Source: a virus. Taken from it: a stretch of 64,000 nt of DNA. The position numbers were made by a program, and so were the translations under genes. Location: the IMG/VR virus record IMGVR_UViG_3300037424_000906, positions 39,780 to 103,779 of that record; one strand, written 5' to 3'. Shown here piece after piece: positions 33,178-62,164 of this stretch (position 1 is the stretch's first letter; every line of letters begins with the position of its first letter). Under the pieces are notes generated by a model. It was not told the DNA's origin. It made no database searches and saw only the letters and a program-made list of their open reading frames with translations.

Positions 33178-33187
33178 GGTGGCGGAC

Positions 33188-46959: not shown

Positions 46960-46996
46960 GTAGACAGTCTACATCAAATATGTAGACCGTCTACAT
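46958..46996. promoter_or_regulatory. Second tandem palindromic operator pair
   Basis: ATGTAGA-N3-TCTACAT at 46958 and 46980. Confidence 0.8.
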
Positions 46997-47081
46997 TAAT
47001 AGGTGTCAGCTGCACGACACCACCCACACGCAGCAACGCCCCGAACCTGACACAGGCCGGGGCGATTGCTGAGCCGGGAGA

Positions 47082-47573
47082 TCAGTTGATCGGGCCGAGG
47101 ACCACCGCGAGCAGCTCATCACCACACGGCTCGTGCGGGTCGTACGCGTCCTCGGCCTCGTCCGGAGTGAGCGAGTAGGTGTCACCCGCCCACGTGGATC
47201 TGGGCACGTACCAGGCAGCCTCCACGGGCAGGGCGAGCGGCGAATAGCCGTTGCCCTCAGCGTCCTTCGCCAGCACCACCACGGCGTCATCAGGCATGTC
47301 TGCGAGCAGCATGCGCAGCTGGGCAACCGTGATGTGGTAGTCCTGCCGGTGATGGCTGGTGGTGTTGGTGGTGCGAGCCAAGCCGTTGAGGCCGGTCATG
47401 ACCGGCCGTACGGGCGGCTTGTCCTCCTCCCGCAGCTGGAACCGTGGAGCACGTAACCCTGCTGTTCCCGGGCATCGGCCCAGCTGCTTGGGCCCGCCGT
47501 GCAGCTTGCGCTGGTTATCGCATCGGGCGCAGCGCGCGTCCGGCCCCGGATCTGGCAACCTGCCGCCTACCAC
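47082..47573 (-). CDS. Conserved phage protein (D.EGN.YSPL family), possible N-terminal Zn finger
   Basis: TVAQL...L..MPDD..VVLAKDAEGNGYSPL...VVL.P.N; start uncertain (47573 or 47399). Confidence 0.65.
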   Translation of the reverse strand: MVGGRLPDPGPDARCARCDNQRKLHGGPKQLGRCPGTAGLRAPRFQLREEDKPPVRPVMTGLNGLARTTNTTSHHRQDYHITVAQLRMLLADMPDDAVVVLAKDAEGNGYSPLALPVEAAWYVPRSTWAGDTYSLTPDEAEDAYDPHEPCGDELLAVVLGPIN

Positions 47574-47971
47574 GACACCCCTACCGCCCGCGCGAGCATC
47601 CGCAGCCGGCGTTCCACCCGGACATCCCTGCCGCAGTTGCAGACGTCTCCGGCATCGTCGTCGGCGCAGGTTCCGCCGTCGACCTCCTCGGTGGCCACGG
47701 CGCAGGTGAACCAGCTGTCGCCCTCGACGACCAGGTGCGTCTCGGCCAGGACGTCGTCGAGCGACTCGCGGAGAGCGGCAACCTGCTCCAGCGCTACGTG
47801 CGGGCTCCAGCGGGCCATGTGTTTTGCGTCGGCGGTGTCGAAGTGGTCCATGGACCACAGGTCGCGGGCGGTGAACCAGTGGTTCGGGTCCGGGTGAAGC
47901 GCTGCCGCGGACTGGGCTAACCGCTCGGTCTCGGCGAGCGCGGCCCGGATCTGCCCGGCAAGGTCGCTCAC
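47567..47971 (-). CDS. DUF6221-like protein, copy 5
   Basis: IRAALAETERLA...DAKHMARWSP. Confidence 0.7.
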   Translation of the reverse strand: MSDLAGQIRAALAETERLAQSAAALHPDPNHWFTARDLWSMDHFDTADAKHMARWSPHVALEQVAALRESLDDVLAETHLVVEGDSWFTCAVATEEVDGGTCADDDAGDVCNCGRDVRVERRLRMLARAVGVSW

Positions 47972-48399
47972 CACGCCACCTCCGGTAGTTCAATGCCGTA
48001 CCCAGCGGCGAGCTGCACGACGATCTCGTACATGGCGGCACCGTGCTCGATCTGGGACCGGTCGCCCGCCTCCGCGCGTTCGTCGTACTTCGCGCAGTGG
48101 GCAACGGCGTGGTCGAGCAGGCGGCGGTCAACTGCTACCTTCCGCAGCTCGCGCTTCGGGTCGTGGTGGGCGATGTGCTGAGCCTGTTCGCCCGTCACGC
48201 CGCCTGGCTTACTCATCAGGTTGATGCCAGAACCCCACGGAATGTTCGGGCTGTCGACGCACTCCCCGTGGTCTTCCCACACCCCGTCGTCGAGCCTCGC
48301 GCCGGAGTCGATCGCATCGGGGTGGTTGAGCGCGGCTGAGGCGAGACGTTCAGTCTCGTCCATCGCGGCCCGGACGCGGGTAACCAGGTCATTGTTCAT
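47968..48399 (-). CDS. DUF6221-like protein, copy 6
   Basis: RAAMDETERLA...HIAHHDPKRELRKVAVDRRLL...LAAGYGIE. Confidence 0.8.
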   Translation of the reverse strand: MNNDLVTRVRAAMDETERLASAALNHPDAIDSGARLDDGVWEDHGECVDSPNIPWGSGINLMSKPGGVTGEQAQHIAHHDPKRELRKVAVDRRLLDHAVAHCAKYDERAEAGDRSQIEHGAAMYEIVVQLAAGYGIELPEVAW

Positions 48400-48656
48400 G
48401 ACGGATCCTTCGTCTCGCCAGCGGGCGGGTACTCGACACCGGGCACGATTCGGTCTGCCAGGTCCGGCCGTTCGAGCTTGAACCGGTCAGACCCAGCAGT
48501 CTCGTCCTCGCTTACCAGCGGGCGCAGGTAGTCGTAGAGCAGGGCCAGGTGCTCCATGCGGGCTGGCGGCTCGATGATGCGGCGCGTCTCCTCCTGCCAC
48601 CGCCAGGTCGGGCTGTCCACGGCCGGGGGCGGGTTACTGCTCGTCTCGTTGCTCAT
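48396..48656 (-). CDS. Hypothetical protein
   Basis: GAGG SD; ATGA coupling. Confidence 0.5.
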   Translation of the reverse strand: MSNETSSNPPPAVDSPTWRWQEETRRIIEPPARMEHLALLYDYLRPLVSEDETAGSDRFKLERPDLADRIVPGVEYPPAGETKDPS

Positions 48657-48776
48657 AGCCTCATCATCTCGCTCAACTCGGGTTGGAACCTCGGTCACTA
48701 CTTCCAACTCCCGGGGCGGTCCGGTTGGAACCTCGCCCGGGTTGCCTACCGCGCAAACATCGGCAACAGTTGACCC

Positions 48777-49001
48777 ATGACGACCAGTGTGGAACTGCGC
48801 ACCACGCAGACGCAGGATGTGTCCGCCGTACGCGCCCAGGTCGCCGCGCAGGTAGCCAAGCTACGTGCAGCGGCGCAGGCCGTACTCCTCGTCGGTGGCA
48901 CGCCCGACCTCGTCCAACAGACTGTCACCGCCGCGATGGCCGACACGCACCTGATGCCGTCATCGATCCAGAACCGCGCCCTCATCGAGGGTGCCCCGTA
49001 A
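48777..49001 (+). CDS. Small hypothetical protein convergent on traB
   Basis: High-GC codon bias; shared hairpin at 49017-49048. Confidence 0.55.
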   Translation: MTTSVELRTTQTQDVSAVRAQVAAQVAKLRAAAQAVLLVGGTPDLVQQTVTAAMADTHLMPSSIQNRALIEGAP

Positions 49002-49061
49002 GCGCACTCGTGCGACGAAGGGGCTGGCGCTACCGTGCCGGCCCCTTCTCCGTGCTTACTA

Positions 49062-51176
49062 CTACGGGACAAAGTCGGCATGAACGTAGAGTCCCTGGAC
49101 CCCCGGCTTGCACAACACGCCATCGTCGACGAGCTCCGCCAGGTACTTCTGCCGGGTGTCGCGGTGGACTGTCATCCCTTCCCGGTCCATGGCTTCGCCG
49201 ATCTTGCCGGACTTCACGCCGTCCGCGCCGAACGAGTGCACGAACGCGACAATGAACGACTTGGGAGCGTTGGTCGCGGCTTCGATGATCGCCCCCATCA
49301 GCGCCTCGTCTCCGGTCGTGCCGGTGCGGTCGGCGTAGTCGTCCGCCCCGGCCTGGATCAGGTCGGAGAATGTCGGCTCCGCAGTGGGAGCGGTGCTGGC
49401 CGGCTCGACCTCGAACCCGTCTACGATCTGGTCGAGCTGCGCGTCGAACCACTCCTGACCGCGTTTGCCGACCGCGGCCCGGCCCGTGATCCGCATGAGC
49501 TTCTCGGCTGCCGCCTGTGCCGCTCCCAACGCGCTGTTGATGTCCAGCGGTTCCCCGCTGACCTTTCCCGCTGACACCGGGGCGTCGTCGTCTCCGTGGC
49601 TGTCGTCGGGCATGCCGAGGCTGATCAGGATGTGCCTGGACCTGTGCCACCGCTTCGTCCACCGGTCTCCCGCGATCTTCAGCGCCCGCGGGTCAAGGTC
49701 GGGGTGGTGGTGCTCGGTCGCGGAGCTCAACTCCACGATCTGGTCGGGCTTGAGGTTGTAGCCCATGTACTGCACCGGGGGTGCCTTCTTGATCCGGATG
49801 AAGGCGTTCCCGGGGTACTGCAGGTCGTCGGAGGACAGATTGCGGTTCCAGCCCATGACGTACGCGATCTCCTCGTCCCCACCGACCGTGGCGCAGATCC
49901 GTACGGACGACTGGGCTCGGATACCGGGCGGGATGACGTCGCCGGTCCCCCGCAAGCCGGTGAAGTGAACGTTGAACCCGGAATCGCGGCCGACGCGCTG
50001 GAGCTTCTCCAGGAGCGCCCGCAGCTGGTATGACGGTCCGGACTCGCCGACGACCTCGGCGCCTTCGTCGACGAAGACCTCGAACGCCGGCAACGTCCTG
50101 CTGATCGGCAGGAGTGTGGCGTTCGCCTGCCTTTTGACCTCGAACGCGGACTTCTTCCGGTCGAGCGCAATGTCGATGAGCATCTGCACTAGCAGAATGC
50201 CTTCTTGGACGTTGTCGGCGACAGCGCCGATGACCGCCTTCTTGACTACGCCCATCGCGAGCGGGTACAGGAACGGCATGGCCAGGCTGCCGGCGTTGAG
50301 GTCGATGACGACGCTGATCGAGTCCACGTTCGTGGCACATTTGCCGATCATCGTGGTGAGGACGGTTGTTTTGCCTGACCCCTTCTCTCCGATCGTCAGG
50401 CTTGAATCCTGCCGGAACCCGACGTAGACCTTCTGCCCGTTCTTGTAGACGCCGATGTCTTTCGGGTCGTTGACCGAGGTGGGGCGGTAGTCCCTCGGGA
50501 ATGGGGCTTCCACGGCCAGGGCGTTCACGGTCATGACGTCCATCAGGACCGCGCCCTGGTTGACGCCGACCCGGAACGTCACCGTGCAGCCCAGGTCCAG
50601 CTTCGCCGCCCCGGCCAGGCTTTGCCCGTAGGGGGCAAGGTTCTTCCATGTCACCCCGGGCGGTGGGTCCATGTCGAATGTGTAGCCGGTGTCGTCGGGC
50701 CACGCCTCGATACCGACGATCTTCACCTTGTATCGGGTGAGAGACAGGATGCGCTGCGCCCATTCCGCGGCCATCTCCGAGCGGTCTGCGGCGCGGCCCT
50801 CGTCTGGGGCTGGGTCGACGAAGGCGGAGACGGCGTTCGGTGTGAACGCCGGCGAGAGGATGCCTGCAGCTAACGCAACGCTGGGCAGTGCGGTCCAGAC
50901 CCAGAAGTTCTCGGGTCCCCCCTTCAGGAGCCAGACGACCCACGCACCGGCGGCGAGGAAGCAGCCAATGCGGAACCAGACGATGCTGGGTGCTGTGCCG
51001 AGGCGGCGGCCGAAGACGTACGTGGCGGTTGCTGCTGCCAGCGTTGGCAGTAGCGGGGCGGGTGATGGCATGTCGGTGGCGAGGCCGAGCAGGCCGAGGA
51101 GCACAGCCCCGAGTGTGGCGTTGATCGGCCCAGAGATCGGGCCGTGGTTGAAGGTGCCGACTTCACGAGCCGTCAT
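49062..51176 (-). CDS. traB: FtsK/SpoIIIE-family conjugative DNA translocase (Streptomyces TraB type)
   Basis: N-terminal TM segments, Walker A GEKGSGKT, Walker B VFVDEG, C-terminal winged helix; neighbouring Spd-like and GntR genes. Confidence 0.85.
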   Translation of the reverse strand: MTAREVGTFNHGPISGPINATLGAVLLGLLGLATDMPSPAPLLPTLAAATATYVFGRRLGTAPSIVWFRIGCFLAAGAWVVWLLKGGPENFWVWTALPSVALAAGILSPAFTPNAVSAFVDPAPDEGRAADRSEMAAEWAQRILSLTRYKVKIVGIEAWPDDTGYTFDMDPPPGVTWKNLAPYGQSLAGAAKLDLGCTVTFRVGVNQGAVLMDVMTVNALAVEAPFPRDYRPTSVNDPKDIGVYKNGQKVYVGFRQDSSLTIGEKGSGKTTVLTTMIGKCATNVDSISVVIDLNAGSLAMPFLYPLAMGVVKKAVIGAVADNVQEGILLVQMLIDIALDRKKSAFEVKRQANATLLPISRTLPAFEVFVDEGAEVVGESGPSYQLRALLEKLQRVGRDSGFNVHFTGLRGTGDVIPPGIRAQSSVRICATVGGDEEIAYVMGWNRNLSSDDLQYPGNAFIRIKKAPPVQYMGYNLKPDQIVELSSATEHHHPDLDPRALKIAGDRWTKRWHRSRHILISLGMPDDSHGDDDAPVSAGKVSGEPLDINSALGAAQAAAEKLMRITGRAAVGKRGQEWFDAQLDQIVDGFEVEPASTAPTAEPTFSDLIQAGADDYADRTGTTGDEALMGAIIEAATNAPKSFIVAFVHSFGADGVKSGKIGEAMDREGMTVHRDTRQKYLAELVDDGVLCKPGVQGLYVHADFVP

Positions 51177-51237
51177 GGTCTTCTCCTGGAATGTGGCGGT
51201 CGGGACCACCAGGCGGTGGTCCCGACCGGTGGATGGG

Positions 51238-52518
51238 TCAGTTGTCCTTCAGGAAGGTGCTCACGTCGGCGCGCGCCTCAGCGGCGAGGGACACGCGCGG
51301 GTCGCTGGTCTTCTTGTCCTCTTCGGCGTGCAGGGCCTTGAAGCCCGGGTACAGGGCCTCGGAGATCCCTACCAGCGTTCCGGCTGACTTGGCCAGCGTG
51401 TTGAGGGTGTCCTTGATGCCCGGGTGCAGGATCTCGAACTCCTCGCCGTGTTTGGCCACGGATGCGAGGACGGCCGCGAAGTCCTCGACGACCTGCGGGA
51501 GGGACTTCAGGTCCTCGCCGAACTTCTGCAGGCTGGCGCGGTGGTAGCCGGATGCTGCGTTGCGTGCGTCCTCGGACGCCTGCGAAAACGGGTACGGGCC
51601 GGGCATCGTTCCTCCTGTGTTGGCCTTGGTGCGGGTGGTTGGGGTTTCTTCGTCGAAGATGCTGGTCTTGATCCGTGGCTTCGCGTCTTCGGCCCAGTCG
51701 TCGGGGGGCGTGAGCTCGATGGGGTCGACCTGCGTCACCTGCTCGTCTCTGCGTCGCGCACGGACGACGTCGGCCGGGGTCTCCTCCTGTCCCTCCTTCT
51801 TGTCTTTCTTGCCTTTCTTCTCCGGCTTCGGCTCCCAGGCGAGTCCGTCTTTGAACGCCGCCCAGAACGGGCTGGACGGCGATTCGCCGCGGTGGCCACG
51901 GCGAATCGGTGCGCCGGATCCACCGCCAGGCGCGAACGTTTCGCGCCTTCCACGACGACCTGGTGCCGGTGTGCCGACACGGCTGCCGACACCGGTTCCC
52001 GGCGTGCCGGCTCCGCCTTTCGGCTGTCGCTGCCGCCACCTGGCCAGCGGGCCGGTTCCCGGGCCAGTGCCGGAGCCAGTGCCACTCTTGGACTTGAGGC
52101 CCAGCATCCGGCGTAGGCCGCGGGGGGAGCCGGTGCGGGTTCCGCCGCCGGAGCTGCTAGAGCCGGAGCTGCCGGAGCGGCCGGAGCCGGGCAGGCCGCC
52201 GCTACGCGGGGATCTGTTCGTCCAGCTGCGCGTCCTCGGCCCTGATGCGCCGTGGCGGTTGCGGCGGCGAAAGTAGTGCCGGGCAACGACTCCGACAACG
52301 AGCACGGCGACGTTGGCGAGCGCGGCCAGCCACATTCCCAGCCACAGGAACAGGGCCAGCTCGACACTGCCGAGTAGCAGCGCGGCTGTGAGTATCTCGG
52401 TGCCGGTCGGACGCCATCGCCGCGCCGCCCGGTTCGGCGCTGTTGCCGTTGCGGGCGCGGTAGGTGCTGCGGTCGGTGCCGGGTTCGTGGCGGTGCCGGG
52501 CTGAGCGGGTGCGGTCAT
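51238..52518 (-). CDS. TraB-associated membrane protein (AICE/Spd-like)
   Basis: Two TM segments, Gly/Ser/Arg linker, helical C-terminus; directly upstream of traB. Confidence 0.7.
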   Translation of the reverse strand: MTAPAQPGTATNPAPTAAPTAPATATAPNRAARRWRPTGTEILTAALLLGSVELALFLWLGMWLAALANVAVLVVGVVARHYFRRRNRHGASGPRTRSWTNRSPRSGGLPGSGRSGSSGSSSSGGGTRTGSPRGLRRMLGLKSKSGTGSGTGPGTGPLARWRQRQPKGGAGTPGTGVGSRVGTPAPGRRGRRETFAPGGGSGAPIRRGHRGESPSSPFWAAFKDGLAWEPKPEKKGKKDKKEGQEETPADVVRARRRDEQVTQVDPIELTPPDDWAEDAKPRIKTSIFDEETPTTRTKANTGGTMPGPYPFSQASEDARNAASGYHRASLQKFGEDLKSLPQVVEDFAAVLASVAKHGEEFEILHPGIKDTLNTLAKSAGTLVGISEALYPGFKALHAEEDKKTSDPRVSLAAEARADVSTFLKDN

Positions 52519-52553
52519 GGTTCTCCTCGTATCCGGCGTGTCTGACGGGCGGG

Positions 52554-52799
52554 TCAGGGGCGCGTGTCGGCGCGTCGGGCGAGCGCGTGGGCACCGAAGG
52601 ATGCGCCGGCGAAAACGATGACGGCACCCAGGACCGGCGCGAAGAGCCCGTTCCAGCCCTGAGCGCCTGCGATCATCGCGGCAAGCAGGAACGCGGTGGT
52701 TCCGGCGAGGCCGGAAGCGATGTTGGCGCCGACACGCAAGTTACTCCCGCCCTGGGCCCCGTCCTGGGGGCTGCGGGCGGGGCTGGTGTTCTGGGGCAT
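52554..52799 (-). CDS. Small 2-TM Spd-like protein
   Basis: GGAGGAG SD; two hydrophobic helices. Confidence 0.65.
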   Translation of the reverse strand: MPQNTSPARSPQDGAQGGSNLRVGANIASGLAGTTAFLLAAMIAGAQGWNGLFAPVLGAVIVFAGASFGAHALARRADTRP

Positions 52800-52812
52800 G
52801 GGCTCCTCCGGA

Positions 52813-52941
52813 TGTCGGGTTGTCGGTGTCGGACTGTCGGAGTGTCGGGCCGAGTAGCGGGGTGGTGAGGCTTTGAGCTGGGGAAACTGGGGTGGGAGGG
52901 GGTGGTTGAGACTGTCGGACCGACACTCCGACACTCCGACA
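52813..52941. repeat. clt-like cluster of TGTCGG repeats, mostly 8-bp period
   Basis: TGTCGG at 52813, 52821, 52827, 52835, 52843, 52913; CCGACA at 52920, 52928, 52936. Confidence 0.75.
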
Positions 52942-52960
52942 AAGACGCGCCCTGCGCTGG

Positions 52961-53095
52961 TTAGTTCTGCGTGCGCCACCGGTCGTCGTACACGCCGTCG
53001 TCGTCTTCGTTGTCGCCGTAGTCGTCGTCCGGCTCTTCCTTGACGTAAACCGTCTCGGCCTTGCCGTCCTCGTCGTAGCGGGTCTCGTAGCCCAC
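52961..53095 (-). CDS. 44-aa highly acidic peptide
   Basis: GAGAGG SD; MGYETRYDEDGKAETVYVKEEPDDDYGDNEDDDG... Confidence 0.55.
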   Translation of the reverse strand: MGYETRYDEDGKAETVYVKEEPDDDYGDNEDDDGVYDDRWRTQN

Positions 53096-53204
53096 GTCAG
53101 TGCCTCTCGATCGGTGGTTCCGGACGCTGGTGCTGGTGCCGCGCTGGCTTGGCGTCCACCGCACCCCACCGGCACGCGGCTGGTGGGGCACGGAAGCTGC
53201 CAGG

Positions 53205-53351
53205 TCAGCGGCTCTGCGTGGCACCGCAGGAGCAGGTGGAGATGGTGGCCACGACCTTGCCGTTCCGGTCCCTCTCGACGTGGGAGAAGGCGAAGCGGTG
53301 GACGTGGGCGGGCGTGATGGGGGTCGTCTTGCGGAACGGGTTGCCAGCCAT
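53205..53351 (-). CDS. 48-aa HxH...CxC peptide
   Basis: GGGAG SD; HVHRF...CSCG. Confidence 0.55.
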   Translation of the reverse strand: MAGNPFRKTTPITPAHVHRFAFSHVERDRNGKVVATISTCSCGATQSR

Positions 53352-53451
53352 GCTGTTCTCCCTGTCGGGTCGGGGTGGGGGTGGTGCTGGTCGTCTGCGA
53401 TGGCGGGCACCGCGTCGGGCCGTGGTGATGAGCTCGGCCCGCGCGAAGCCG

Positions 53452-53652
53452 TCAGAAGGCTTCGGGGTGCTCGATCCAAGCGACAGCCTGGACGGGGATG
53501 AGCACGGTTCCGGTGTCGGCGTTGAGGCGCAGGACTCCGCCCGTCCCCCTGAGCCAGCTCTCCACGAGCCGTACGTTTTGGCTGCCGACATCGAAGGTGT
53601 GCCGCTCGCCGTTGAGGAGTACGACCGTCATTCGGGGCTGGGCGGTGGGCAT
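53452..53652 (-). CDS. Small hypothetical protein
   Basis: GGAGG SD; beta-rich. Confidence 0.6.
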   Translation of the reverse strand: MPTAQPRMTVVLLNGERHTFDVGSQNVRLVESWLRGTGGVLRLNADTGTVLIPVQAVAWIEHPEAF

Positions 53653-53691
53653 GGGTTCCTCCGGTGGGTGTCGTAGGTGTCGTACGAGTTG

Positions 53692-54804
53692 TCAGGCGGA
53701 CGTGGTGCGCTGGTCGGCGTTCACCTGTTCGTCGGCGAACAGCACGCCGAGGAGGTCGTCCGCGTCCTGCTCGAACGTGGAGGCTGGCCCGCTGATGGAC
53801 TGCTGGTTCGTACGAGCACCGTTTCCGCTGGAAAACGGTGCGACGTCGGTATGCCGCTGCTCGCCGTCCGGACCTGTCGCGAGCGTGTTCGCCTTGTACT
53901 TCGCCACGATCGGCGACACCGTGTTGGGCTTGATGAACAACTGGTACTGGGCCAGCCACCGCACCACATCAATCGGGCGGGCGTGAGGACCGAACTGCGG
54001 CAGGTCCAGGGCGTAGCGCACACAGGCGGAGATGCTCACCAGTTGCCGCATTGCCGTCGCATGCTCGTCGTCGATGTCGGCGGGGATCAGCTGCGATGGC
54101 ATCGCAGACACCGGGCGGCTGATCGCATCGATCCTCGGCGGGTACGGGCCTGGTCGTCCGATGCCGGGCTGCGACGGCTGTACCGACGTCGGCATGATCT
54201 CGCCGACGATGACCGAACGTCGGGCATCGTCGGCTGCGAGCGCGAGTGCGAGGTCGGTCGCCCGTCGTGCGGTGCCCAGCTCGACCGTACGATCCCGCCA
54301 CTCGGCAACGGTGCGTCGTACACCGTTGGCGTACGCGTACGTCACGATGCCCTTACGACGTGCCCGACGGTCGGCCCGACGCTCGCGGCGCTTCCGCCGG
54401 AACTCTGCGAACACTGGCGCGTATCGGTCCTTGACGTCGGTGTGCCACAGGATCAGCGACAGGATTGCCGCCGCAGGCAATGCGATGGCGAGGGTCAGCG
54501 TCGGGTCGTGTGCGTGGTTGTAGATCGCAAGGGCGGCGGACAGGAGCGCACCGAGGCTGACGCCGACCCGGGTGAGGATGTCGGTCTCGTCGCGGAGCCT
54601 GCCCCGGGTGGAGTACGCCGCGAACGTCACCGCGAAACCCTCCAGGAACAGCGTCAGGCCGATCGCGGCGGGCAGCCACAGGCCGGCCCGGTAGAAGCTG
54701 TCAGCGGTGTTGTAGCCGACTGCGATCACGCCGACGCCGTACATGGCGCGGATGAGGATCCGGTACCCCCAGTGCAGGGGCGGCTGGTCGGTCTCGGTGG
54801 TCAT
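53692..54804 (-). CDS. DUF2637/SpdA-SpdB-like membrane protein
   Basis: Four TM segments with N..H motif, basic linker, helical C-terminus; GAAGGA SD. Confidence 0.7.
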   Translation of the reverse strand: MTTETDQPPLHWGYRILIRAMYGVGVIAVGYNTADSFYRAGLWLPAAIGLTLFLEGFAVTFAAYSTRGRLRDETDILTRVGVSLGALLSAALAIYNHAHDPTLTLAIALPAAAILSLILWHTDVKDRYAPVFAEFRRKRRERRADRRARRKGIVTYAYANGVRRTVAEWRDRTVELGTARRATDLALALAADDARRSVIVGEIMPTSVQPSQPGIGRPGPYPPRIDAISRPVSAMPSQLIPADIDDEHATAMRQLVSISACVRYALDLPQFGPHARPIDVVRWLAQYQLFIKPNTVSPIVAKYKANTLATGPDGEQRHTDVAPFSSGNGARTNQQSISGPASTFEQDADDLLGVLFADEQVNADQRTTSA

Positions 54805-54852
54805 CGGTGTCGTGTCCTTCTCGGTGAGGTGGCGGGTCGGGCGGGGCTGGGG

Positions 54853-55123
54853 TTAGACGGCGCCGATCTGGACCGGCATGGACTCCACAGAGTGGATGCG
54901 GAACCCGAGGCAACTGACCGCCTCGTGCTGGACCGCCCACAGGCCGGCGGCGATCAGCCCGGCCTCGTCGCACCGCCAGGACGCGATGGGCTGACCCTTG
55001 CCGACGAGGTAGGCGTTGATGTGGGAGGGCTTACCGGCGTGCGGGTCGCAGTGGGGCGGTGACCATGTACCGGGCGTCGGTTTTCGGCGGGTCGATGATG
55101 GTCGGCAGTTTGGTGGTGGGCAT
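54853..55123 (-). pseudogene. Small gene apparently frameshifted at the C4 run (55053-55056)
   Basis: GAGG SD and ATG give 30 aa then TAA; the +1 frame continues HCDPHAGK... to 54853. Confidence 0.45.
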
Positions 55124-55177
55124 GGCGGGTCCTCTCGGGTGGGATGAGCCGGGAGCACGTAGCTCCCGGCGGCTGGG

Positions 55178-55327
55178 TCAGCGGCAGTTCTGGGGGCTGG
55201 CCTTGAGGTTGTCGATCAGGCGCTCCTGGCGGGCGCGCACCGGGGAGGTTGGGCTGAGCGCCTGCATGGTTTTGCGGGCGGAGGCGAGCTGGGCGGCGGT
55301 CTTGGTGGCGCTGCTGGTCTGCGGCAT
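55178..55327 (-). CDS. 49-aa peptide
   Basis: GAGG SD; MPQTSSATKTAAQLA... Confidence 0.55.
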   Translation of the reverse strand: MPQTSSATKTAAQLASARKTMQALSPTSPVRARQERLIDNLKASPQNCR

Positions 55328-55355
55328 GGGTGGTCCTCTCGGGTGGGGGTGGGGG

Positions 55356-55871
55356 TCAGGCGGCGTTGGCGAGCTGCCCGGTGAGGGCTTCAGCGGCGGC
55401 GCGGCGGTTCGCGGCGAGCATCTGGCCCCACGGGGATAGCGGCTTCTCGCGGCGTCCGGCGGTGAGCGGGGTGACGGTGGCGAGAGCGGGCACGAGCTCG
55501 ACGGCCGGGGCGGTCACGGCGGCGGGTTGCGTGGTGGCGACGAGTTCGGCGTAGTCGGCCTTGAACGCGTTGTCGTTGCGGATCTCCTGCGGGGTGCGGA
55601 GCTTCTCGCGCAGTGCCCGGAGCTTGCCGATGGTGCCGCTGCTGCGGTAGTAGGAGTGCCCGCCCGCGTAGTTGCGTAGGTCCTCATCGGCTGCCGTGCG
55701 GATCGCTTTGATGCAGCGCTTGCACAGCTGGGCGGCGGTGGCGTTCGCGAGGGGGATGGAGCTGGTGTAGATCGTGACGCGGTCGCCGGCACCGCAGTGG
55801 GCGCGGCCCTTGATGTCGAGGTGGAGCTTCGCGGTGGGGGAGGCGGTTACCGGGGCAACGATCGCGGTCAT
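55356..55871 (-). CDS. Hypothetical H..C..CxxC Zn-binding protein
   Basis: KLH...AHCG...LCKRC; GGAGG upstream. Confidence 0.7.
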   Translation of the reverse strand: MTAIVAPVTASPTAKLHLDIKGRAHCGAGDRVTIYTSSIPLANATAAQLCKRCIKAIRTAADEDLRNYAGGHSYYRSSGTIGKLRALREKLRTPQEIRNDNAFKADYAELVATTQPAAVTAPAVELVPALATVTPLTAGRREKPLSPWGQMLAANRRAAAEALTGQLANAA

Positions 55872-55883
55872 GCCTCCACCATA

Positions 55884-55919
55884 GTTCATAGTGCTATTGC
55901 ATGCAACAGTACTGTGAAC
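55884..55919. promoter_or_regulatory. 36-bp imperfect palindrome at divergent promoters
   Basis: GTTCATAGTGCTATTGCA|TGCAACAGTACTGTGAAC, 15/18 match. Confidence 0.7.
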
Positions 55920-55928
55920 ATATAGTGA

Positions 55929-56318
55929 GTGAATCACCAACATCCCGATCTCCCCAAGCACCGCCCACCCGCCTACGCTGAGCGCATGGCAAAAGAGGAG
56001 TCTGCAGTGAACTACGAGCTGGTCGAGGTACTCGGCCGCATCCTCTGCAGACAAGCCCTCACGCACGTCGACCCACTCGAACGGGCCGCCGCACTCGACG
56101 AGCTAAGACCCACGGCTGACGCGCTGCACACCTACCTCATCGAGAAGCGCGGAGAGGTCATGAGGCAGGCACTCGAACGGAAGCAGACGACCAACGTCGC
56201 ACTCGCCAAGCGGCTCAGAGTGTCCCGCGCCCGAATCACCGCGATGATCAGCGACGGGAAGAAAGCCAAGGCGAAGCGGGAAGCTGCAGCTGAGGATGGT
56301 CGGGAGCCAACCAGCTGA
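55929..56318 (+). CDS. HTH regulator, probable repressor of the transfer operon
   Basis: NVALAKRLRVSRARITAM; divergent across the palindrome. Confidence 0.7.
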   Translation: MNHQHPDLPKHRPPAYAERMAKEESAVNYELVEVLGRILCRQALTHVDPLERAAALDELRPTADALHTYLIEKRGEVMRQALERKQTTNVALAKRLRVSRARITAMISDGKKAKAKREAAAEDGREPTS

Positions 56319-56328
56319 AAGGCAGCCA

Positions 56329-56901
56329 GTGGCCAAGGCGCCCCCGAACCACCGACCCTGCACACATCGCCTCATCTACCGCCTGACGTGCGACGATTAC
56401 AACCAACTGATTGCTCGCGCCGAAGGACGGTGTGACCGTTGTGGCGAGGAGTCACGCCGACTCTGTGTAGATCATGACTACGGCATCGGGTCGCACGCAG
56501 TACGTGGATTCGTGTGCAACCGATGCAACACGATCATTTGCAAGGTCGAAACCTTCGACCGGCGAGTTGGTCCCGACGACGCCACGCTTGCCTATCTGGC
56601 GAACCCGTTTCACTCGCTGATCTCGTTCGACATCATGGACACGCGCGAGGCGAAGCTGCTTTTCAGGATGAGACCCGCGCCCCGGCTCGACTGGGCTTAC
56701 TACAACAGGTCCCAACCCAGAATGATCGACATCACAGACGCTCCCGAGACCCTCGGCATTTCGTTCGACGCTGTCGAAGATCTCAGGCTTCGGGGCCGGT
56801 TGCCGACGGTCAAGGTTGGAGGCAAGACTGTGGTCCGTCACACGGCGCTACGGCAGCTGAAGATGCTGATGCCCTACCAGCCCATACGTGCGGGCGGTTA
56901 G
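56329..56901 (+). CDS. Endonuclease VII domain plus excisionase-like HTH
   Basis: GRCDRC...VDHDY...VRGFVCNRCN; ETLGIS...V..L...GRLPTVKVGG. Confidence 0.8.
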   Translation: MAKAPPNHRPCTHRLIYRLTCDDYNQLIARAEGRCDRCGEESRRLCVDHDYGIGSHAVRGFVCNRCNTIICKVETFDRRVGPDDATLAYLANPFHSLISFDIMDTREAKLLFRMRPAPRLDWAYYNRSQPRMIDITDAPETLGISFDAVEDLRLRGRLPTVKVGGKTVVRHTALRQLKMLMPYQPIRAGG

Positions 56902-57134
56902 TTTTCACCGTGTCTTCGGGCGCCCGTGGCAATCCGACTACGGGCGCCCTGCGTCGCCCAACGCCCAGCCCTCAGGCCACCGCGACCCATCCTGGGGCAC
57001 CTCGGCGGCAGTCGGCACGTCAGCCTGAGCGGCAGCGGCCCGGACAATGCCCGCAGCCTCCCAGGCGGCCTTGCTCGCATCCGCCCACCGATCATCACGC
57101 ATCCGCCTCGGGCCTCGCTGTAGCCGGCCCGCGC

Positions 57135-57347
57135 TCACCACAGAAAGCCCGCGAACACCAGGGCCACGAACAACAGCAGCGGCAACCATGCCGCAACCCG
57201 CACGACGGCAAGCAGCAGCCGGCGCGACCGGCGAGCACGCGCCTGTGGGGGAGCGGGAGGCCCGGCGCCGATCCGGAACGCGGTCACCCGGGGTGGGGCA
57301 GGTGGGGCTGGTGGGGCATGACCGATCCGGATCGTCGCGGAAGTCAT
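57135..57347 (-). CDS. Small Pro-rich membrane protein
   Basis: C-terminal TM; coupled to 57344-57484. Confidence 0.55.
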   Translation of the reverse strand: MTSATIRIGHAPPAPPAPPRVTAFRIGAGPPAPPQARARRSRRLLLAVVRVAAWLPLLLFVALVFAGFLW

Positions 57348-57484
57348 GGCGCGCTCTGGTCGTCGGCGTGGTCCTGCTCGGTCCAGCCACGCATGCGGTC
57401 GGCCTGCGACATGCGCACGTCGGCCAGGTAACGAGCCCACGCGCGGGCAAGCGTGCCGCGCAGGGCAGTAATGCGGTGGCGCAT
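57344..57484 (-). CDS. 46-aa peptide (not in ORF track)
   Basis: GGAGGAGG SD; ATGA overlap. Confidence 0.5.
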   Translation of the reverse strand: MRHRITALRGTLARAWARYLADVRMSQADRMRGWTEQDHADDQSAP

Positions 57485-57913
57485 ACGTCCTCCTCCAGGG
57501 ATGAGTGTGCCCTGCCCGGTCGCCTCTCACCGCACCGCGGCCCGCCGGGCAGCGCAGTACAGCTGGGCAACGACCGGGCAGGGCGCCGGGGCAGGTTCAC
57601 CACATCTTTGGACCGCTTCCCGCCCCGGGTTCCCGGACCGTCATGGCGGGCGAGGCCTGTCAGCCAATCCGGGGTCTCTGCCCGAGGTGGCCGGCCGCTC
57701 GATGAAAGTACGCCGGCCACCTCGGGTGTCCCCTCCGCCGGGGAACGCGTACGGGGTACGCGGACAGGAGCGGAGGGGGTGCGTGAGCCACTGGTTGTCG
57801 ACTCCGGGGACTCGCGTGTCAGGTTATTCGAATAAGATGGACAAGTGCAACTAGCTGTAGCGGTCAAAGAAGCAGTCATGGTCGAATCGGGGCGTCGACT
57901 CCGGAGGTTCACC

Positions 57914-58150
57914 GTGTCTAAACCGCTGCCCATGACCACTGATCAGATCATCGAAGACATCACCGCCCGCATCGAATCGGGCGAGCTGGAACCAGGCGAC
58001 CGATTGCCGACATACGCCGACCTACGCACCTTGTACTCGGTCGGGCACGGCACCGCCGCGCGGGTGATCCTGCTGCTGAAGGAACGCGGCCTCGTGGTCG
58101 GCCTCCACGGCAAGGGCGTCTACGTGGCCGAAAGGAAGAAAGAGCAGTGA
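57914..58150 (+). CDS. GntR-family winged-HTH regulator (Kor-like)
   Basis: QIIEDI...I.SGEL.PGDRLPT...GLV....GKGVYV. Confidence 0.88.
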   Translation: MSKPLPMTTDQIIEDITARIESGELEPGDRLPTYADLRTLYSVGHGTAARVILLLKERGLVVGLHGKGVYVAERKKEQ

Positions 58151-58902
58151 CGGAGGCGGAGCGTTTCTGGGTGAAGGTCACTGGGGCAGACGTTGCCGAA
58201 TGCTGGCTCTGGGTTGGGGCGAAGAACCCTCAAGGCTACGGGCGCTTCACCGCCATGGCCGAGGGCCGCAACCGCACTGTCGCGGCCCACCGTTGGTCAT
58301 ATCAGTACATGCGGGCCGAGATCATTCCGTACAACCTCTGCCTCGACCACCTGTGCTCCAACCCGCCATGCGTGAACCCCTGGCACCTGGAGCCAGTGAC
58401 GTGGGGCGTGAACTCGCGGCGGTCGTCCCAGCGAGGCCGGGCTCACGGTGCCTACATGAACCCGTCGGAGGCTCCGGCCAACCACAAAAATACCTCTCCC
58501 ATGTACATGCGGGTCGTGGCGGACCTCCGTAGCCGCCATGCGGAGGGAACTCTTGACTTCGAGGTCACGCCTCAGCAGATTGCCCGTCGCACGAACCTGA
58601 CGATGTCCAGCGCCGAAGCAGCCGCTTCGTGGCTTGCTGCCGAGGGGATCGCGGATTCGTGCTGGCTGCGGTCGAGTAAGCCACGGGAAGCCGTTGGCGT
58701 GGTTCGGGAAGTGCCGCACATCCCTTCACCCCGGGGCTTAATCAGGCTTGAGGGAGATCCAGGCGTCACCCTCGCACTACCGGATGGTCAACTCCTCTGG
58801 GCTAGCACCGAGGAGTACGACTACCGAGACCGTGCCGAGTTCGAGGCCGAGATTGCAGAACTAGCTGCAGCCAAGGCCGGCATGCCCTTGCGTGAGGCGT
58901 GA
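58147..58902 (+). CDS. HNH endonuclease fused to a GntR-like HTH
   Basis: RFW.KV...CWLW.G....GYG.F...AHR...DHLC.NP.CVNP.HLE.VT..N; P.Y.RVVADLR. Confidence 0.85.
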   Translation: MTEAERFWVKVTGADVAECWLWVGAKNPQGYGRFTAMAEGRNRTVAAHRWSYQYMRAEIIPYNLCLDHLCSNPPCVNPWHLEPVTWGVNSRRSSQRGRAHGAYMNPSEAPANHKNTSPMYMRVVADLRSRHAEGTLDFEVTPQQIARRTNLTMSSAEAAASWLAAEGIADSCWLRSSKPREAVGVVREVPHIPSPRGLIRLEGDPGVTLALPDGQLLWASTEEYDYRDRAEFEAEIAELAAAKAGMPLREA

Positions 58903-58986
58903 CCGGCATGGTTAAGCGATGGTCGTCAACCTGTTGCCCCTAGGGCCCTAGGCCCCTACCTTCTGAAACGTTCATAGCCTGCGCAA

Positions 58987-59400
58987 GTGCCTGCCGCTGC
59001 GCTCGATCGCGCTTCCGGCGTCTCCCTATACCGACAGCTCGCCCAGGATCTGCGCCGCCGCATCAAGGCCGGCGAGTGGGCGCCGGGAGGACGTCTGCCG
59101 TCGGAGGCTGTGCTGTGCCATGAGTACGACCTGGGCCGGGATGCGGTCCGGCGTGGGTTGGCGATTCTGCGTGACGCGGACGTGATCGTCACCCGGTCGG
59201 GTCAGCAAGCCCGGGTCGCGCAGCGTAGCGACGACGGTGAGGTGATCGTGCTGCCGCCGGGTTCGGAGTGGTGGGCGCGCCTGGCAACGTCGGAGGAGTG
59301 TCGCGAAAACGGCTGGCCGCTTGGGTCGATAGCGGTCGTGGTCCGTCGTGGTTCTGTGACCAGGTTGTTCGGGGCGCATCTGCACAGGTTCCGGACCTAA
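58987..59400 (+). CDS. GntR-family regulator
   Basis: LYRQLA.DLR.RI.AGEW.PG.RLPSE..L..EY. Confidence 0.88.
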   Translation: MPAAALDRASGVSLYRQLAQDLRRRIKAGEWAPGGRLPSEAVLCHEYDLGRDAVRRGLAILRDADVIVTRSGQQARVAQRSDDGEVIVLPPGSEWWARLATSEECRENGWPLGSIAVVVRRGSVTRLFGAHLHRFRT

Positions 59401-59754
59401 CACCTGTCTGGTTACCGACAGTGATGGACTGGGTGTCCGGTTTAGTGAAGGTGAACGCGAACGGGTGACGACGCCCGCCGACCCTTGACGGATGTCGATT
59501 CCGGCAAATACTGGCATCGGGGACATCGATCATTAAGCCATGACTGAAACACTCCCCCGAACGGTCAGGTGTCCTAACCGGTGAGATGCGACGTAACAGC
59601 CACGTGAACAACCGCAGGTCAGATGATCGCGTGATCGTTCAACCCTCACGGACAGTGCATATGCAAATGCATCCGTGAAGAGCATGCTGAAACCTCGTTC
59701 ATTCAGGTCACTCAGGTCCGGGCGGGGGGCCTGTCTCAACGAGGAGGCAGCAGG

Positions 59755-60210
59755 TTGCAGCACAACAAGATCGAGGCATACTCCAAAACCGCCGTCAGCG
59801 TCGGAGTCATCGGACTCTTCGTCGTCGGTACATGGGCCCTCGCGGGGACCCCGAAAGCTTGGTCTCCAAGCTGGTACATTCTGGCCGCCTCGCTCTTGAT
59901 CGTCACCTCCACCCTCCTCGGCGGCTGCTGTGGACTGCTGGCCTCCTGGGTCGGAGGGCTTCTCGCAAGTCTGTGCACCGATCTTGCAGGCAGAGAGCGG
60001 GACTGGCTACGCCGCAACGGCGAGCTGTCCACCGCGCTGGAAGACATCACGGCGAAACTGTCCTCGATGGCCACGACACTGGCAGCCGTTGAGCAGCGGC
60101 AGACGGACGGGTATCTGTGCGCGTATGTCGACGGCATGTCGGGTCGGGAGCCGGCGGTGAAGCGAGGGGCACTACACCTCGTACCGCAAAGCCCGTTCGA
60201 TCAGGACTAG
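59755..60210 (+). CDS. Membrane protein with coiled coil
   Basis: GAGGAGG SD, TTG start, two TM segments. Confidence 0.65.
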   Translation: MQHNKIEAYSKTAVSVGVIGLFVVGTWALAGTPKAWSPSWYILAASLLIVTSTLLGGCCGLLASWVGGLLASLCTDLAGRERDWLRRNGELSTALEDITAKLSSMATTLAAVEQRQTDGYLCAYVDGMSGREPAVKRGALHLVPQSPFDQD

Positions 60211-60254
60211 CTGCATGCGAAACTGGCCGCGGTCGTCCGATGCGATGACCGCGG

Positions 60255-60497
60255 TCAGTCTTGTTTGCCCAGCACCGCCTCGGCGAGCTCGGCGTCGATT
60301 ACGGCGGCAAGCTGGCCAGCTGCGGCAGCTTCAGTGGCGGTGAACGGCGGAAGGCTCGCGGCGATCTGGGCCGCTCGCTCCTGGAGCTCGGCGTCGGTCC
60401 ATGGCGTCAGGCGCCGTGCGGGTCGGATTCGGGGCTGGGGAACGTCGTCAGATGTGACGACTGTTGCGCCCTGGAATCTTTCGACTGTTGCGGTCAC
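60255..60497 (-). CDS. Small protein; candidate recombination directionality factor
   Basis: Leaderless, next to the integrase, shares its promoter sequence with cro. Confidence 0.55.
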   Translation of the reverse strand: MTATVERFQGATVVTSDDVPQPRIRPARRLTPWTDAELQERAAQIAASLPPFTATEAAAAGQLAAVIDAELAEAVLGKQD

Positions 60498-60539
60498 GTC
60501 ACAAAGCTACAGCCCTGCCGGGTGTTGCGCCACCGTCAC
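60486..60539 (-). repeat. Copy of the cro promoter/start (inverted repeat of 62857-62911)
   Basis: GTGACGGTRGCGCAACACCCG..GCTGTAGCTT..GTGACGTGACCGCAACA in both. Confidence 0.85.
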
Positions 60540-60542
60540 TTT

Positions 60543-62012
60543 TTATTCGGTTGGCCGATCGTTGCGGACTGGTTCAATGACCACCCGATCCGGGTCAAAG
60601 CGTCGGGGTGCGCGGCGGTCAAGTGGCATAATCAGCACTTTCTTGCCGCGTAACGCTCGTTGGATCATTGCTCTTCTCCGGTCAGTGGAGGAGTTGTCCC
60701 ACCGCAACTGCCACTCAGAGTGTGACGCCATGGTCATTTCAGGCGTCACTTCTTCCAGCGTGGGCATGTCGCCGAGCCGGGCCAGCTGCGTACGTAGCTC
60801 ATCTAGGCGCCGGTCGAGCGGTCCTACGGCAGCGTCATGCCTGGCGAGGTCCATCTCTCCGCGCCCCAGTCTGGCTGCCAGTTCGGTTGCCGTGTGTTCG
60901 ATCTCGGCTATCTGCTTATCAAGATCGTTCTTTTGTTCGCGGGCACTCCGCAAGGCGGCCTCAACCGCCGTGGCATGTCGAGGGTCGGCAAGGATGTTCA
61001 CGACGATCTGACCCATGTACTTGTCGAGTTCACGCTGGTCAATGGAGAGACGGCCGCATCCCTCACCCCGGCGCGGATGGCACCAGTACTGTCGGCGAAT
61101 CTCCCCGTTGGGGTAAGGCGTCAGGTTGCCGCGAGGTCTGCCCGTAAGCCGGTTCTGGCATCGCCCACAATGCACAAACGCAGAGCACAGGTAGATCGGG
61201 GAGACCGGACGCCCGTGCCGCCGAGCCGCATAGATGGCGCAGATCCGTTCCCAGTCACCCTTCTCCAGAATCGGGGCGCCCGGCATTGTCGCGACAATCT
61301 CCCCCTTGTGCTCAACCAAGCCCGCGTTACGCGGTCTGAGAATGACCTGGCGCAGCGCGACCAGGTCCCAGGCGTTGCCGTAGGAAGTGAGGACGCCGCG
61401 GGCGTTCAGATCCACAGCTATGGCGCTCTGGGAGTCCCCAGTGAGCAACCGGGCTGCAATGGAACGCAGCTCTTCGGCCTCCGCCCGGCGGTGGGTTACC
61501 CCGTCCTGCTCGAATCCGTACGGGCGGACGGTGTGGTTGGACTCTCCAGACATGGCCTTGAGCCTCTTGCCCCTGCGGACGCGGGTGGAGAGCCGATCTG
61601 ACTCGTAGGCCGCACTGTTCATCTGCTCCCGGAAGTGCTTCTTGCCGGATGCGCTGGTGAGGTCATATTCGCCTTCGGAGTCCAGGATGATCAGACCTCG
61701 TTCGGCGGCTGCGATCAGCCGCTCGCCTTCGGCTGGGCGGCGGCTGAATCTGGCGAGGTCGAAGACGACGGCACCGCCTGTCTCCCCGACTTCAAGCCGG
61801 CGCATGAGTTCGTCCCAGCCCGGTCGTTTAGCGCGAGGGTTCCAGGCGGAGCGCCCTGGGTCGCTGAGGGTCTCGCCGACGAGAGCGCCGCGCTCGATGA
61901 TGCGTCCCTTGCAGTCCTGTGCTTGCCCCTCGGAGGAGCGTTGGCGTTCGTCTCCTAGTCGGCTGGTGCGGGTATAGATGTCGAGGATGAGTTCGCCTTT
62001 AGGTTTCGCCAT
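60543..62012 (-). CDS. int: Large serine integrase
   Basis: IYTRTS, D.GRSA, RPG, DLARFSR; recombinase domain; CGRC...YWC....C Zn ribbon; coiled coil. Confidence 0.95.
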   Translation of the reverse strand: MAKPKGELILDIYTRTSRLGDERQRSSEGQAQDCKGRIIERGALVGETLSDPGRSAWNPRAKRPGWDELMRRLEVGETGGAVVFDLARFSRRPAEGERLIAAAERGLIILDSEGEYDLTSASGKKHFREQMNSAAYESDRLSTRVRRGKRLKAMSGESNHTVRPYGFEQDGVTHRRAEAEELRSIAARLLTGDSQSAIAVDLNARGVLTSYGNAWDLVALRQVILRPRNAGLVEHKGEIVATMPGAPILEKGDWERICAIYAARRHGRPVSPIYLCSAFVHCGRCQNRLTGRPRGNLTPYPNGEIRRQYWCHPRRGEGCGRLSIDQRELDKYMGQIVVNILADPRHATAVEAALRSAREQKNDLDKQIAEIEHTATELAARLGRGEMDLARHDAAVGPLDRRLDELRTQLARLGDMPTLEEVTPEMTMASHSEWQLRWDNSSTDRRRAMIQRALRGKKVLIMPLDRRAPRRFDPDRVVIEPVRNDRPTE

Positions 62013-62033
62013 GGATTCCCCTTTTCCGCTTGG

Positions 62034-62077
62034 GTCACTAATCGTACATCGACCTGGGTCAGTGTTTGATTAGTAAC
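62034..62077. other. Candidate attP
   Basis: 21-bp imperfect inverted arms (16/21) around central TG at 62055-62056, just upstream of int. Confidence 0.6.
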
Positions 62078-62164
62078 AACTCTCTGACCAGCAGGTTTAC
62101 TGACAAAGAAAGCCCCGGATGCGAATGTTCGCGTCCGGGGCAAGGTCTTGGCGGCGACGGACAG

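Follow-up and report, generated by a model that had tools for sequence, protein, structure and literature searches.

The window analysed here is a stretch of 64,000 nucleotides, the last 64 kb (bases 39780-103779) of one 103,779-bp IMG/VR contig that is listed as linear, with a CheckV completeness of 92% and a GC content of approximately 65%. All positions below are those of the window unless stated otherwise. Between positions 48,682 and 56,318, a leftward gene unit ending in a gene for a TraB/Tra-family translocase of double-stranded DNA (dsDNA) was found together with repeat elements and a divergent regulator gene. These parts very probably form a TraB-type module. The following features were assigned, with TM denoting transmembrane helices, ORF an open reading frame and (w)HTH a (winged) helix-turn-helix fold:

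48682-48731, no strand: small repeat set, GTTGGAAS three times (two direct, one inverted), 330-380 bp beyond traB
49017-49048, minus strand: G+C-rich hairpin, read from the sequence, 13 nt past the traB stop codon
49062-51209, minus strand: TraB/Tra-family dsDNA translocase gene (traB), 715 aa; probable start at ATG 51176, giving 704 aa
approximately 49065-49370, within traB: C-terminal wHTH-like domain
50061-50078, within traB: Walker B
50367-50390, within traB: Walker A
approximately 50844-51134, within traB: TM helices
51197-51228, minus strand: perfect 14-bp stem with a 4-nt loop, in the 61-nt gap from the partner gene to the probable traB ATG
51238-52518, minus strand: partner gene, 426 aa; two TM helices and, after a Gly/Ser/Arg-rich linker, a C-terminal domain of approximately 100 aa
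52554-52799, minus strand: gene for a small membrane protein with two TM helices (2-TM gene), 81 aa
52813-52941, no strand: repeat element, nine TGTCGG/CCGACA copies in 129 bp, in the gap before the 2-TM gene
52961-53652, minus strand: three small ORFs (67, 48 and 66 aa) inside the operon, no known function
53692-54804, minus strand: gene for an SpdB-like membrane protein, 370 aa; three to four TM helices at the N-terminus and, at the C-terminus, a conserved HTH-like block
54853-55889, minus strand: the genes that open the leftward operon, ORFs with 101, 49 and approximately 171-177 aa, no family match
55884-55919, no strand: 36-bp imperfect palindrome in the divergent promoter region, a candidate operator; the leftward unit starts behind it
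55986-56318, plus strand: divergent small HTH regulator gene, 110 aa, no curated family match

The start of traB at ATG 51176 agreed with a database copy of the protein (P0003) and with a homolog (P0004). The predicted protein contained a Walker A (GEKGSGKT) and a Walker B motif (VFVDEG), and residues G279, K280, R351, D381 and E382 were invariant in 82 relatives. The ORF matched PHROG 31069 ('FtsK/SpoIIIE-like') at 4e-74. With hhalign, a TraB family profile built from 82 members aligned to Tra of pIJ101, the classical transfer protein of Streptomyces plasmids, over 292 motor columns (probability 98.1%, E 1.3e-13). Against the PDB, the family profile matched the conjugation coupling protein TcpA (1e-12), FtsK (1e-10) and also EssC/YukB; these matches needed the profile, as a phmmer search of the PDB with the single pump sequence returned noise only. 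The AlphaFold model (mean predicted local distance difference test score, pLDDT, of 87.7) consisted of four N-terminal TM helices (residues 26-45, 53-70, 74-97 and 102-122, all with pLDDT >90), an FtsK-like motor, a disordered linker and a C-terminal domain. Hydropathy analysis also found the TM segments. Foldseek placed the FtsK motor first (1.6e-17), with TcpA also among the top matches. The C-terminus (residues 614-715) had a helix-helix-helix-strand-strand order with a pLDDT of 94-97 from residue 650, and its profile weakly matched the winged helices of Fur and ArgR (E 0.03-0.06); together these hint at a winged-helix domain. A single-sequence model of this domain alone was unusable (pLDDT 44.5). 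The same architecture has been described for TraB of pSVH1 and pWTY27 (PMC4447253, PMC3583192). The translocase likely closes the leftward transcription unit, because the hairpin at 49017-49048 comes after its stop codon; a consensus scan did not pick this hairpin up, because it has no T-run. An earlier note on this DNA, made from the sequence alone, had placed a TraB-type translocase at the end of a leftward operon, and both parts of that statement were confirmed.

Relatives of the pump were numerous. In an exhaustive HMMER search with TraB, 557 representative clusters passed E ≤ 1e-3, and 245 of them passed ≤ 1e-30; almost all of the proteins were approximately 700 aa long. Named relatives came from Streptomyces, Kitasatospora, Polymorphospora and Sphaerisporangium, the nearest from the latter two genera, and most were annotated as 'hypothetical protein'. 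None of the 60 TraB homologs listed had a precomputed Pfam domain, and Pfam and NCBIfam scans gave no hit for the pump or the membrane genes (E ≤ 0.01 in Pfam). A related-locus search of viral contigs with the single TraB protein, a metagenome scan and a megablast of the region against phages and plasmids were all without a match.

Three membrane genes (two, two and three to four predicted TM helices) were located in one leftward unit with traB. The product of the gene directly upstream of traB, the 426-aa protein, is a conserved TraB partner as judged by sequence: its C-terminal domain had weak but consistent similarity to the protein encoded directly upstream of TraB in five of five IMG/VR loci, in phage Hiyaa (gp101) and in plasmid pTH1. 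We found no published name for this partner. The stem at 51197-51228, between partner gene and traB, is a possible attenuator or RNA-stability element. For the 370-aa protein, an ESM-Atlas feature search placed it beside SpdB clusters (0.94; 211 of 256 features) and DUF2637 clusters, which we treat as a lead only. No similarity was detected between this protein and the membrane proteins of pZL12, Hiyaa, pSQ10 and pTH1. Hence, of the three Spd-like membrane genes named in the earlier note, the three TM genes upstream of traB stood, and their Spd identity is a matter of position and topology, with sequence tests giving no match.

The repeat element at 52813-52941 was the top hexamer cluster of the 103.8-kb contig (Poisson P ~1e-13 against the window background). 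Read on the minus strand, it consisted of three copies of TGTCGGAG, one CCGACA, a C-rich spacer of approximately 65 nt and five CCGACA copies at 6-8-bp steps, followed by a ribosome-binding site (RBS) and the start of the 2-TM gene. The same layout, in which a C-rich spacer separates a first motif arm from a second, inverted or palindromic one that is followed by an RBS, was found before the partner gene of four IMG/VR loci and of a phage from Streptomyces sp. NBC_01177. The motifs of these relatives differed (GACTGCAGTC, GACTCCGA and GTCGTCG), and a spacer core, GAACAGC(GC/C)AAA(A)CCCCC, was common to loci L004, L006 and L007. An RNA stem as the common denominator was rejected. Folding was clearly better than that of shuffled sequences in the window (z -5.4) and in L008 (z -6.4), with L004, L006 and L007 at z -0.6 to -2.7. 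Because RNA folding was clear in only two of the five, the common denominator is taken to be a DNA site for a sequence-specific protein. Recognition-helix residues of the TraB proteins of Streptomyces homologs changed in step with the motif, in a comparison of three groups only that is confounded by relatedness. The element is a candidate clt site or, alternatively, a candidate operator comparable to the site that TraR of pSVH1 has upstream of spdB3 (PMC4447253). The clt-like repeats of the earlier note were thus recovered as a significant cluster of nine copies in 129 bp, a candidate clt or operator in a location unlike that in plasmids.

A second, smaller repeat set lies behind traB. Three of the five GTTGGAAS matches in the window fell within 50 bp at 48682-48731, the sole set behind the window's traB; this is a second candidate cis site or, alternatively, the promoter or operator of the next unit. 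Unique clusters of short repeats were observed elsewhere in the family. In plasmid pSQ10, a scan of 9.4 kb found CGTAAC/CGTTAC nine times, each time directly behind traB (L028:10930-11074), plasmid pFQ12 had six to seven copies of TGACGCAA just downstream of traB (L032:6940-7071), and Thermobifida phage P1312 had seven copies of ACCGGTCC approximately 1 kb behind traB (L002:9612-9725). All three are candidate clt sites. The P1312 cluster was inside two overlapping annotated ORFs (061/062), which are possibly not genes.

The TraB family occurred on both plasmids and phages. The plasmids were pADI95-16c (10.5 kb), pAGRA3207_2 (16 kb), pSQ10 (18 kb), pFQ12 (22 kb) and pTH1 (55 kb); those of 10.5-22 kb have room for little besides replication and transfer. 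The operons of pSQ10, pAGRA3207_2 and pTH1 had the order divergent GntR gene, small genes, large membrane/HTH protein, partner and TraB, and pTH1 had an extra NUDIX gene, like the integrative and conjugative elements of actinomycetes (AICEs). Phages with a TraB-family gene were Hiyaa, Galactica, Keanu, Spocter, P1312 and the plasmid-phage pZL12, whose pZL12.71c was 24.5% identical to the window's TraB in tblastn (E 1e-15). We found no published study of Hiyaa or pSQ10. Five IMG/VR records had the TraB gene, three of them with a gene for the large terminase (TerL) and/or the tape measure. In addition, NZ_CP108596.1, the 51.8-kb circular 'plasmid unnamed1' of Streptomyces sp. NBC_01177, proved to be a complete temperate siphophage genome (L031:1-22907, L034:1-28859), with genes for the small terminase (TerS), TerL, portal, HK97 protease, capsid, tape measure, serine recombinase, DUF2637, partner and TraB. 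The co-occurrence of the gene with prophages, which the earlier note had proposed to survey, is seen both in the IMG/VR records and in NZ_CP108596.1. An 845-bp 'gap' before the annotated 243-aa partner gene of NZ_CP108596.1 appears to be an unannotated Gly/Arg-rich N-terminal part of that gene, with a GTG start near L031:18496. In an IMG/VR prophage (G005, identical in G002; L008:~11900-12388), the TraB homolog carried an extra C-terminal FtsK-gamma-like extension (...QRKLRITWDTTATLMTHLEQHHIVGP...) beyond the usual C-terminal domain.

In a FastTree phylogeny of the TraB motor region, rooted on pIJ101 Tra, phage-borne genes took at least four places. The window's TraB and the 53%-identical P0004 were placed beside a Polymorphospora protein (support 0.95). 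Hiyaa, NBC_01177 and IMG/VR records formed a clade (support 0.95), P1312 was placed within a clade of pTH1 and pAGRA3207_2 (support 0.997), and pZL12 stood apart. Plasmids pSQ10, pFQ12 and pADI95-16c branched between the phage groups. This interleaving of phage and plasmid TraBs implies that phages took the gene from the plasmid pool, or exchanged it, several times. The comparison with TraB and FtsK that the earlier note had suggested as a check matched the family profile of the pump to pIJ101 Tra (hhalign, 98.1%) and gave a tree that mixes phage and plasmid genes.

The carrier was a phage genome, and the window encoded a terminase, portal, capsid, tape measure and endolysin. The following genes were located, all except the integrase by PHROG matches:

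2862-4310, minus strand: large terminase
11171-13213: portal
13210-15777: prohead-protease fusion
15774-17228: major head protein
27490-29913: tape measure
33170-34216: endolysin
38318-39559, minus strand: large regulator
60543-62012, minus strand: large serine integrase, the sole recombinase found in the contig

The left arm of the contig, outside the window, contained genes for RecE/RecT, ParB-like nucleases, a replication initiator and an RNA ligase; the ParB-like proteins matched phage nuclease-type families. The contig carried no host genes flanking the phage, and neither a tyrosine or second integrase nor a ParA-type ATPase was found in it. The carrier is a temperate, siphophage-like genome with a serine integrase, from an uncultured phage whose host is presumably a filamentous bacterium of high GC content. 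These results upheld the earlier description of a serine-integrase temperate phage encoding a virion. The label 'Streptomyces-type' in the same note held for the mechanism and not for the host, given the 65% GC content and the nearest pump relatives in Polymorphospora and Sphaerisporangium. Outside the window, ATGGCA occurred six times within 50 bp (G000:C1:22874-22923, or L010:2874-2923), in or beside the replication-initiator gene (phrog_3926), and this set may represent iterons of a phage origin.

Neither a TrwC relaxase nor VirB4 was found in the contig, in agreement with the earlier statement that a relaxase, a type IV secretion system and a separate integrase are lacking. That note had also seen no rolling-circle Rep: no Rep domain was found in the module ORFs, and AICE-type Rep proteins (Prim-Pol, RepAM) were not found in searches that did not include RepSA or the individual rolling-circle families. 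The earlier note had named own att sites around the module as an observation that would speak against a resident module; no direct repeats of ≥ 15 bp flanked it, which is weak evidence because a serine-integrase insertion would leave none.

Further genes were located rightward of the divergent regulator and downstream of the module:

56296-56901, plus strand: ORF with an endonuclease VII domain and HTH_17 (excisionase-like)
57845-58150, plus strand: first short GntR-type wHTH gene, 101 aa
58147-58902, plus strand: HNH endonuclease gene between the two GntR genes, overlapping the stop of the first by 4 bp
58987-59400, plus strand: second short GntR-type (HutC-like) wHTH gene, 137 aa
47567-48399: two DUF6221 genes, downstream of the module
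45021-45527, minus strand: extracytoplasmic function (ECF)-type sigma factor (with Sigma70_r2 and r4_2), lying downstream of the module at a distance of a few genes
44237-44698: GNAT gene, downstream of the module

The divergent HTH gene and the two GntR genes of the earlier note were all present, the former behind the 36-bp palindrome and the latter as short genes. No effector domain was detected in the two GntR-type proteins, and their genes look truncated. A consensus promoter scan found none. Contigs of another study's freshwater-sediment run (X2) were nearly identical (zero to two differences in 215-240 bases) to 56092-56586, which takes in the HTH gene's 3' end along with the endonuclease VII ORF, while pieces from the same run over its flanks were more divergent, all of them short. 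This segment may be a mobile endonuclease cassette passed among relatives. We rejected run X2 as evidence of habitat, as its pieces were short and partly divergent. Two copies of a palindrome, ATGTAGAC(A/C)GTCTACAT, at 46958-46997 were located right before the leftward gene 46636-46959 and look like a repressor operator pair.

The region is very probably a TraB-type dsDNA transfer and spreading module resident in a temperate phage. Its most likely use is virion-independent movement of phage dsDNA across hyphal membranes or cross-walls, which we consider somewhat more probable than not (roughly 55%). What the sequences show is that the parts are those of such a module and are intact, that they are kin to plasmid Tra proteins, that they sit among phage genes and that the combination recurs in other phages; every activity step, the cis site, and spread between or within mycelia are what we infer in this scheme. 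A repressor encoded by the divergent HTH gene, perhaps aided by the two short GntR proteins, would keep the leftward operon off. Upon derepression, a hexameric TraB motor would come together in the membrane with the SpdB-like, 2-TM and partner proteins. The C-terminal winged-helix domain of TraB might then dock on short phage repeats, with 52813-52941 and 48682-48731 as the candidates. Powered by the motor, the phage genome, whether circular, excised or replicating, would pass as dsDNA through hyphal membranes or cross-walls and reach neighbouring compartments or a mycelium in contact. In the recipient, it could be established by the serine integrase or by phage-encoded replication.

Several observations weigh against this interpretation. 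The Pfam FtsK_SpoIIIE model (PF01580), a match to which is a criterion in AICE surveys (PMC3218068), scored 15.2 bits on TraB, under its cut-off of 24 bits. The 370-aa protein aligned to pIJ101 SpdB with a probability of 0.8% in hhalign and had no DUF2637 (PF10935) match, in a Pfam comparison that did not include the SpdB_N (PF27080) and HTH_SpdB_C (PF27079) models. The 'Spd-like' label of the membrane genes comes from position and topology, plus the embedding look-alike as the one lead to SpdB for the 370-aa protein. Both GntR genes are short, and neither is the immediate divergent neighbour of the operon. The main repeat cluster of the window lies upstream of the partner gene, two genes above traB, whereas in pSQ10 and pFQ12 the clusters come right after traB. 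The element of the Streptomyces relatives has two to three motif copies around the conserved C-rich spacer and resembles an operator-promoter as much as clt. Mycelial growth of the host is a presumption. Hiyaa has the gene without a detectable integrase, so that carriage of the pump does not depend on integration into a host genome.

Among the competing explanations, the one that survives best, itself unlikely, holds that the module is a passenger or remnant: a fragment captured from a plasmid or AICE, which offers the phage no route of spread and is either decaying or acting as a kil/kor addiction or growth-arrest cassette. The interleaving of phage and plasmid TraBs implies repeated capture, TraB/TraR pairs act as kil-kor systems (PMC4447253), and the regulatory part is dotted with homing endonuclease genes. 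Against this explanation stand the module ORFs, all intact, with catalytic residues retained. Codon usage is ameliorated to that of the phage (relative synonymous codon usage of the module against virion, early and right-arm genes, r 0.95-0.98), and the TraB-plus-partner pair is retained in at least four separate phage lineages.

A role in segregation is somewhat less probable again. An FtsK/SpoIIIE/SffA-like pump would clear or deliver phage or prophage DNA across closing septa of spore or hyphal compartments and so secure vertical inheritance, not horizontal transfer. The FtsK-like fold of the motor is consistent with such a role, as are the FtsK-gamma-like C-terminal domain in the close prophage homolog (G005/G002) and the occurrence of the gene in Hiyaa, in which no integrase was detected; the authors of the P1312 genome read ORF63 as a DNA segregation protein (PMC4569894). 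The nearest relatives of known setting are, however, transfer genes of small plasmids in Kor/Spd-type operons. An integrated prophage has no need for a segregation pump of its own, and the conserved membrane partners and repeat site fit a transfer apparatus.

Host takeover, exclusion or defence, in which a membrane ATPase and pore-forming partners alter the envelope or expel or block foreign DNA and do not move the DNA of the phage itself, appears improbable. PHROGs files the family of PHROG 31069 under 'moron, auxiliary metabolic gene and host takeover', and PADLOC gave a weak match to mad8 (1.1e-5, 70 residues). This match spans the Walker B region only, and the mad8 identity of TraB was rejected for that reason. 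No known defence system has such a gene set, and both homology and synteny favour plasmid transfer operons.

Contiguity was judged from Logan contigs of the probable source run (99% of sampled words), which covered the window up to 47025, from 47048 to 55850 and from 55875 to 63621 at depths of 13.5, 12.1 and 11, with no repeat at either junction (47025-47048 and 55850-55875). At the level of contigs, the contiguity check of the earlier note gave similar depths and no listed contig across either junction. An assembly chimera, in which the assembler fused an 8.8-kb piece with the module, derived from a different replicon, to the arms of the phage, is very unlikely, even though the Logan contigs stop at 47025/47048 and 55850/55875, because depth is even, codon usage matches and closed records (NZ_CP108596.1, P1312, Hiyaa and pZL12) hold phage and TraB module together.

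If the preferred interpretation, virion-independent spread by a TraB-type module, is correct, temperate actinophages have a second, capsid-free route of spread that ignores receptor resistance and proceeds without lysis. For soil and sediment actinomycetes, among them many antibiotic producers, this would change estimates of host range, lysogen spread and gene flow, and it would blur the boundary between prophage and AICE. As a broader and tentative proposal, which we regard as possible and on balance doubtful, integrating tailed phages of filamentous actinomycetes may be widespread, unrecognised 'conjugative prophages', the excised genome being pumped by TraB, partner and Spd into neighbouring hyphae independently of receptors and capsids. 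The docking site would have moved from behind traB to the repeat-spacer-repeat before the partner gene, where it would also gate expression of the pump. The question is open to direct testing, because cultured stand-ins (the NBC_01177 element, P1312 and Hiyaa) carry the same gene set.

The idea of capsid-free spread is already known in kind, from the precedent of pZL12 and a suggestion by Thoma et al. in 2015 that Spd homologues on actinophages spread phage DNA (PMC3583192, PMC4487206, PMC4447253). The novelty of the locus had been rated too high in the earlier note: pZL12, P1312, Hiyaa-like phages and the NBC_01177 phage carry the same gene. What this contig adds is an integrating, serine-integrase example that forms its own lineage and probably does not come from Streptomyces, and the clearest repeat-spacer-repeat element before a partner-traB pair.

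The window resembles four kinds of known system. Tailed phages and prophages in public records (P1312, Hiyaa, Galactica, Keanu, Spocter and NZ_CP108596.1) have a TraB gene of 27-33% identity with a partner domain encoded just upstream, and P1312 and NZ_CP108596.1 also have a serine recombinase, as does the window phage. They differ in TraB lineage, host and genome size, and their TraB gene is annotated only as 'FtsK-like DNA translocase', 'DNA segregation ATPase' or 'hypothetical'.

pZL12, or phage ZL12 (GQ919031), is a Streptomyces plasmid-phage reportedly described by Zhong et al. (2010, J Bacteriol 192:3747). Like the window phage, it combines virion genes and a TraB-family gene in one replicon, with traB at the end of an operon that contains a large upstream protein and a membrane protein and is divergent from a GntR gene. 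A passage in PMC3583192 states that its transfer depends on the main tra gene together with two genes next to it, and one in PMC4487206 describes it as a conjugative plasmid-phage maintained as a plasmid with ParA and ParB. In contrast, a serine integrase is present in the window phage, where no ParA was found. The TraB of pZL12 is on another branch of the tree, and its partner proteins have no detectable similarity to those of the window.

AICEs of the pSAM2, SLP1 and pMEA300 type share with the window phage an integrase, a TraB-type translocase, Spd-like genes, GntR-type regulators and prophage-like maintenance (PMC2440964, PMC3218068). They are defined by Int, Rep (RepSA, RepAM or Prim-Pol) and Tra, bounded by att sites (PMC3218068). 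The window phage differs in its 104 kb and full virion set, in the searches for Prim-Pol and RepAM, which found neither, and in having no att-like direct repeats around the module.

The fourth parallel is with Streptomyces plasmid systems. Those of pIJ101, pSVH1 and pWTY27 have a membrane-anchored FtsK-like motor with a C-terminal DNA-binding domain, which is putative in the window protein, and the window's TraB is homologous to pIJ101 Tra. As in plasmids of the Tra/TraB-clt-Spd-TraR(KorA) type, the operon combines small and membrane proteins with GntR-type regulators and short repeats at 8-bp steps (PMC4447253, PMC3583192). Unlike in these plasmids, the immediate divergent regulator of the window is a non-GntR HTH protein and its GntR proteins are without an effector domain; compared with pIJ101-type systems, the window has no sequence match to SpdA or SpdB. 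In the plasmids of the same subfamily (pSQ10, pTH1, pAGRA3207_2, pFQ12 and pADI95-16c) the carrier of the module is a plasmid, whereas here it is a phage.

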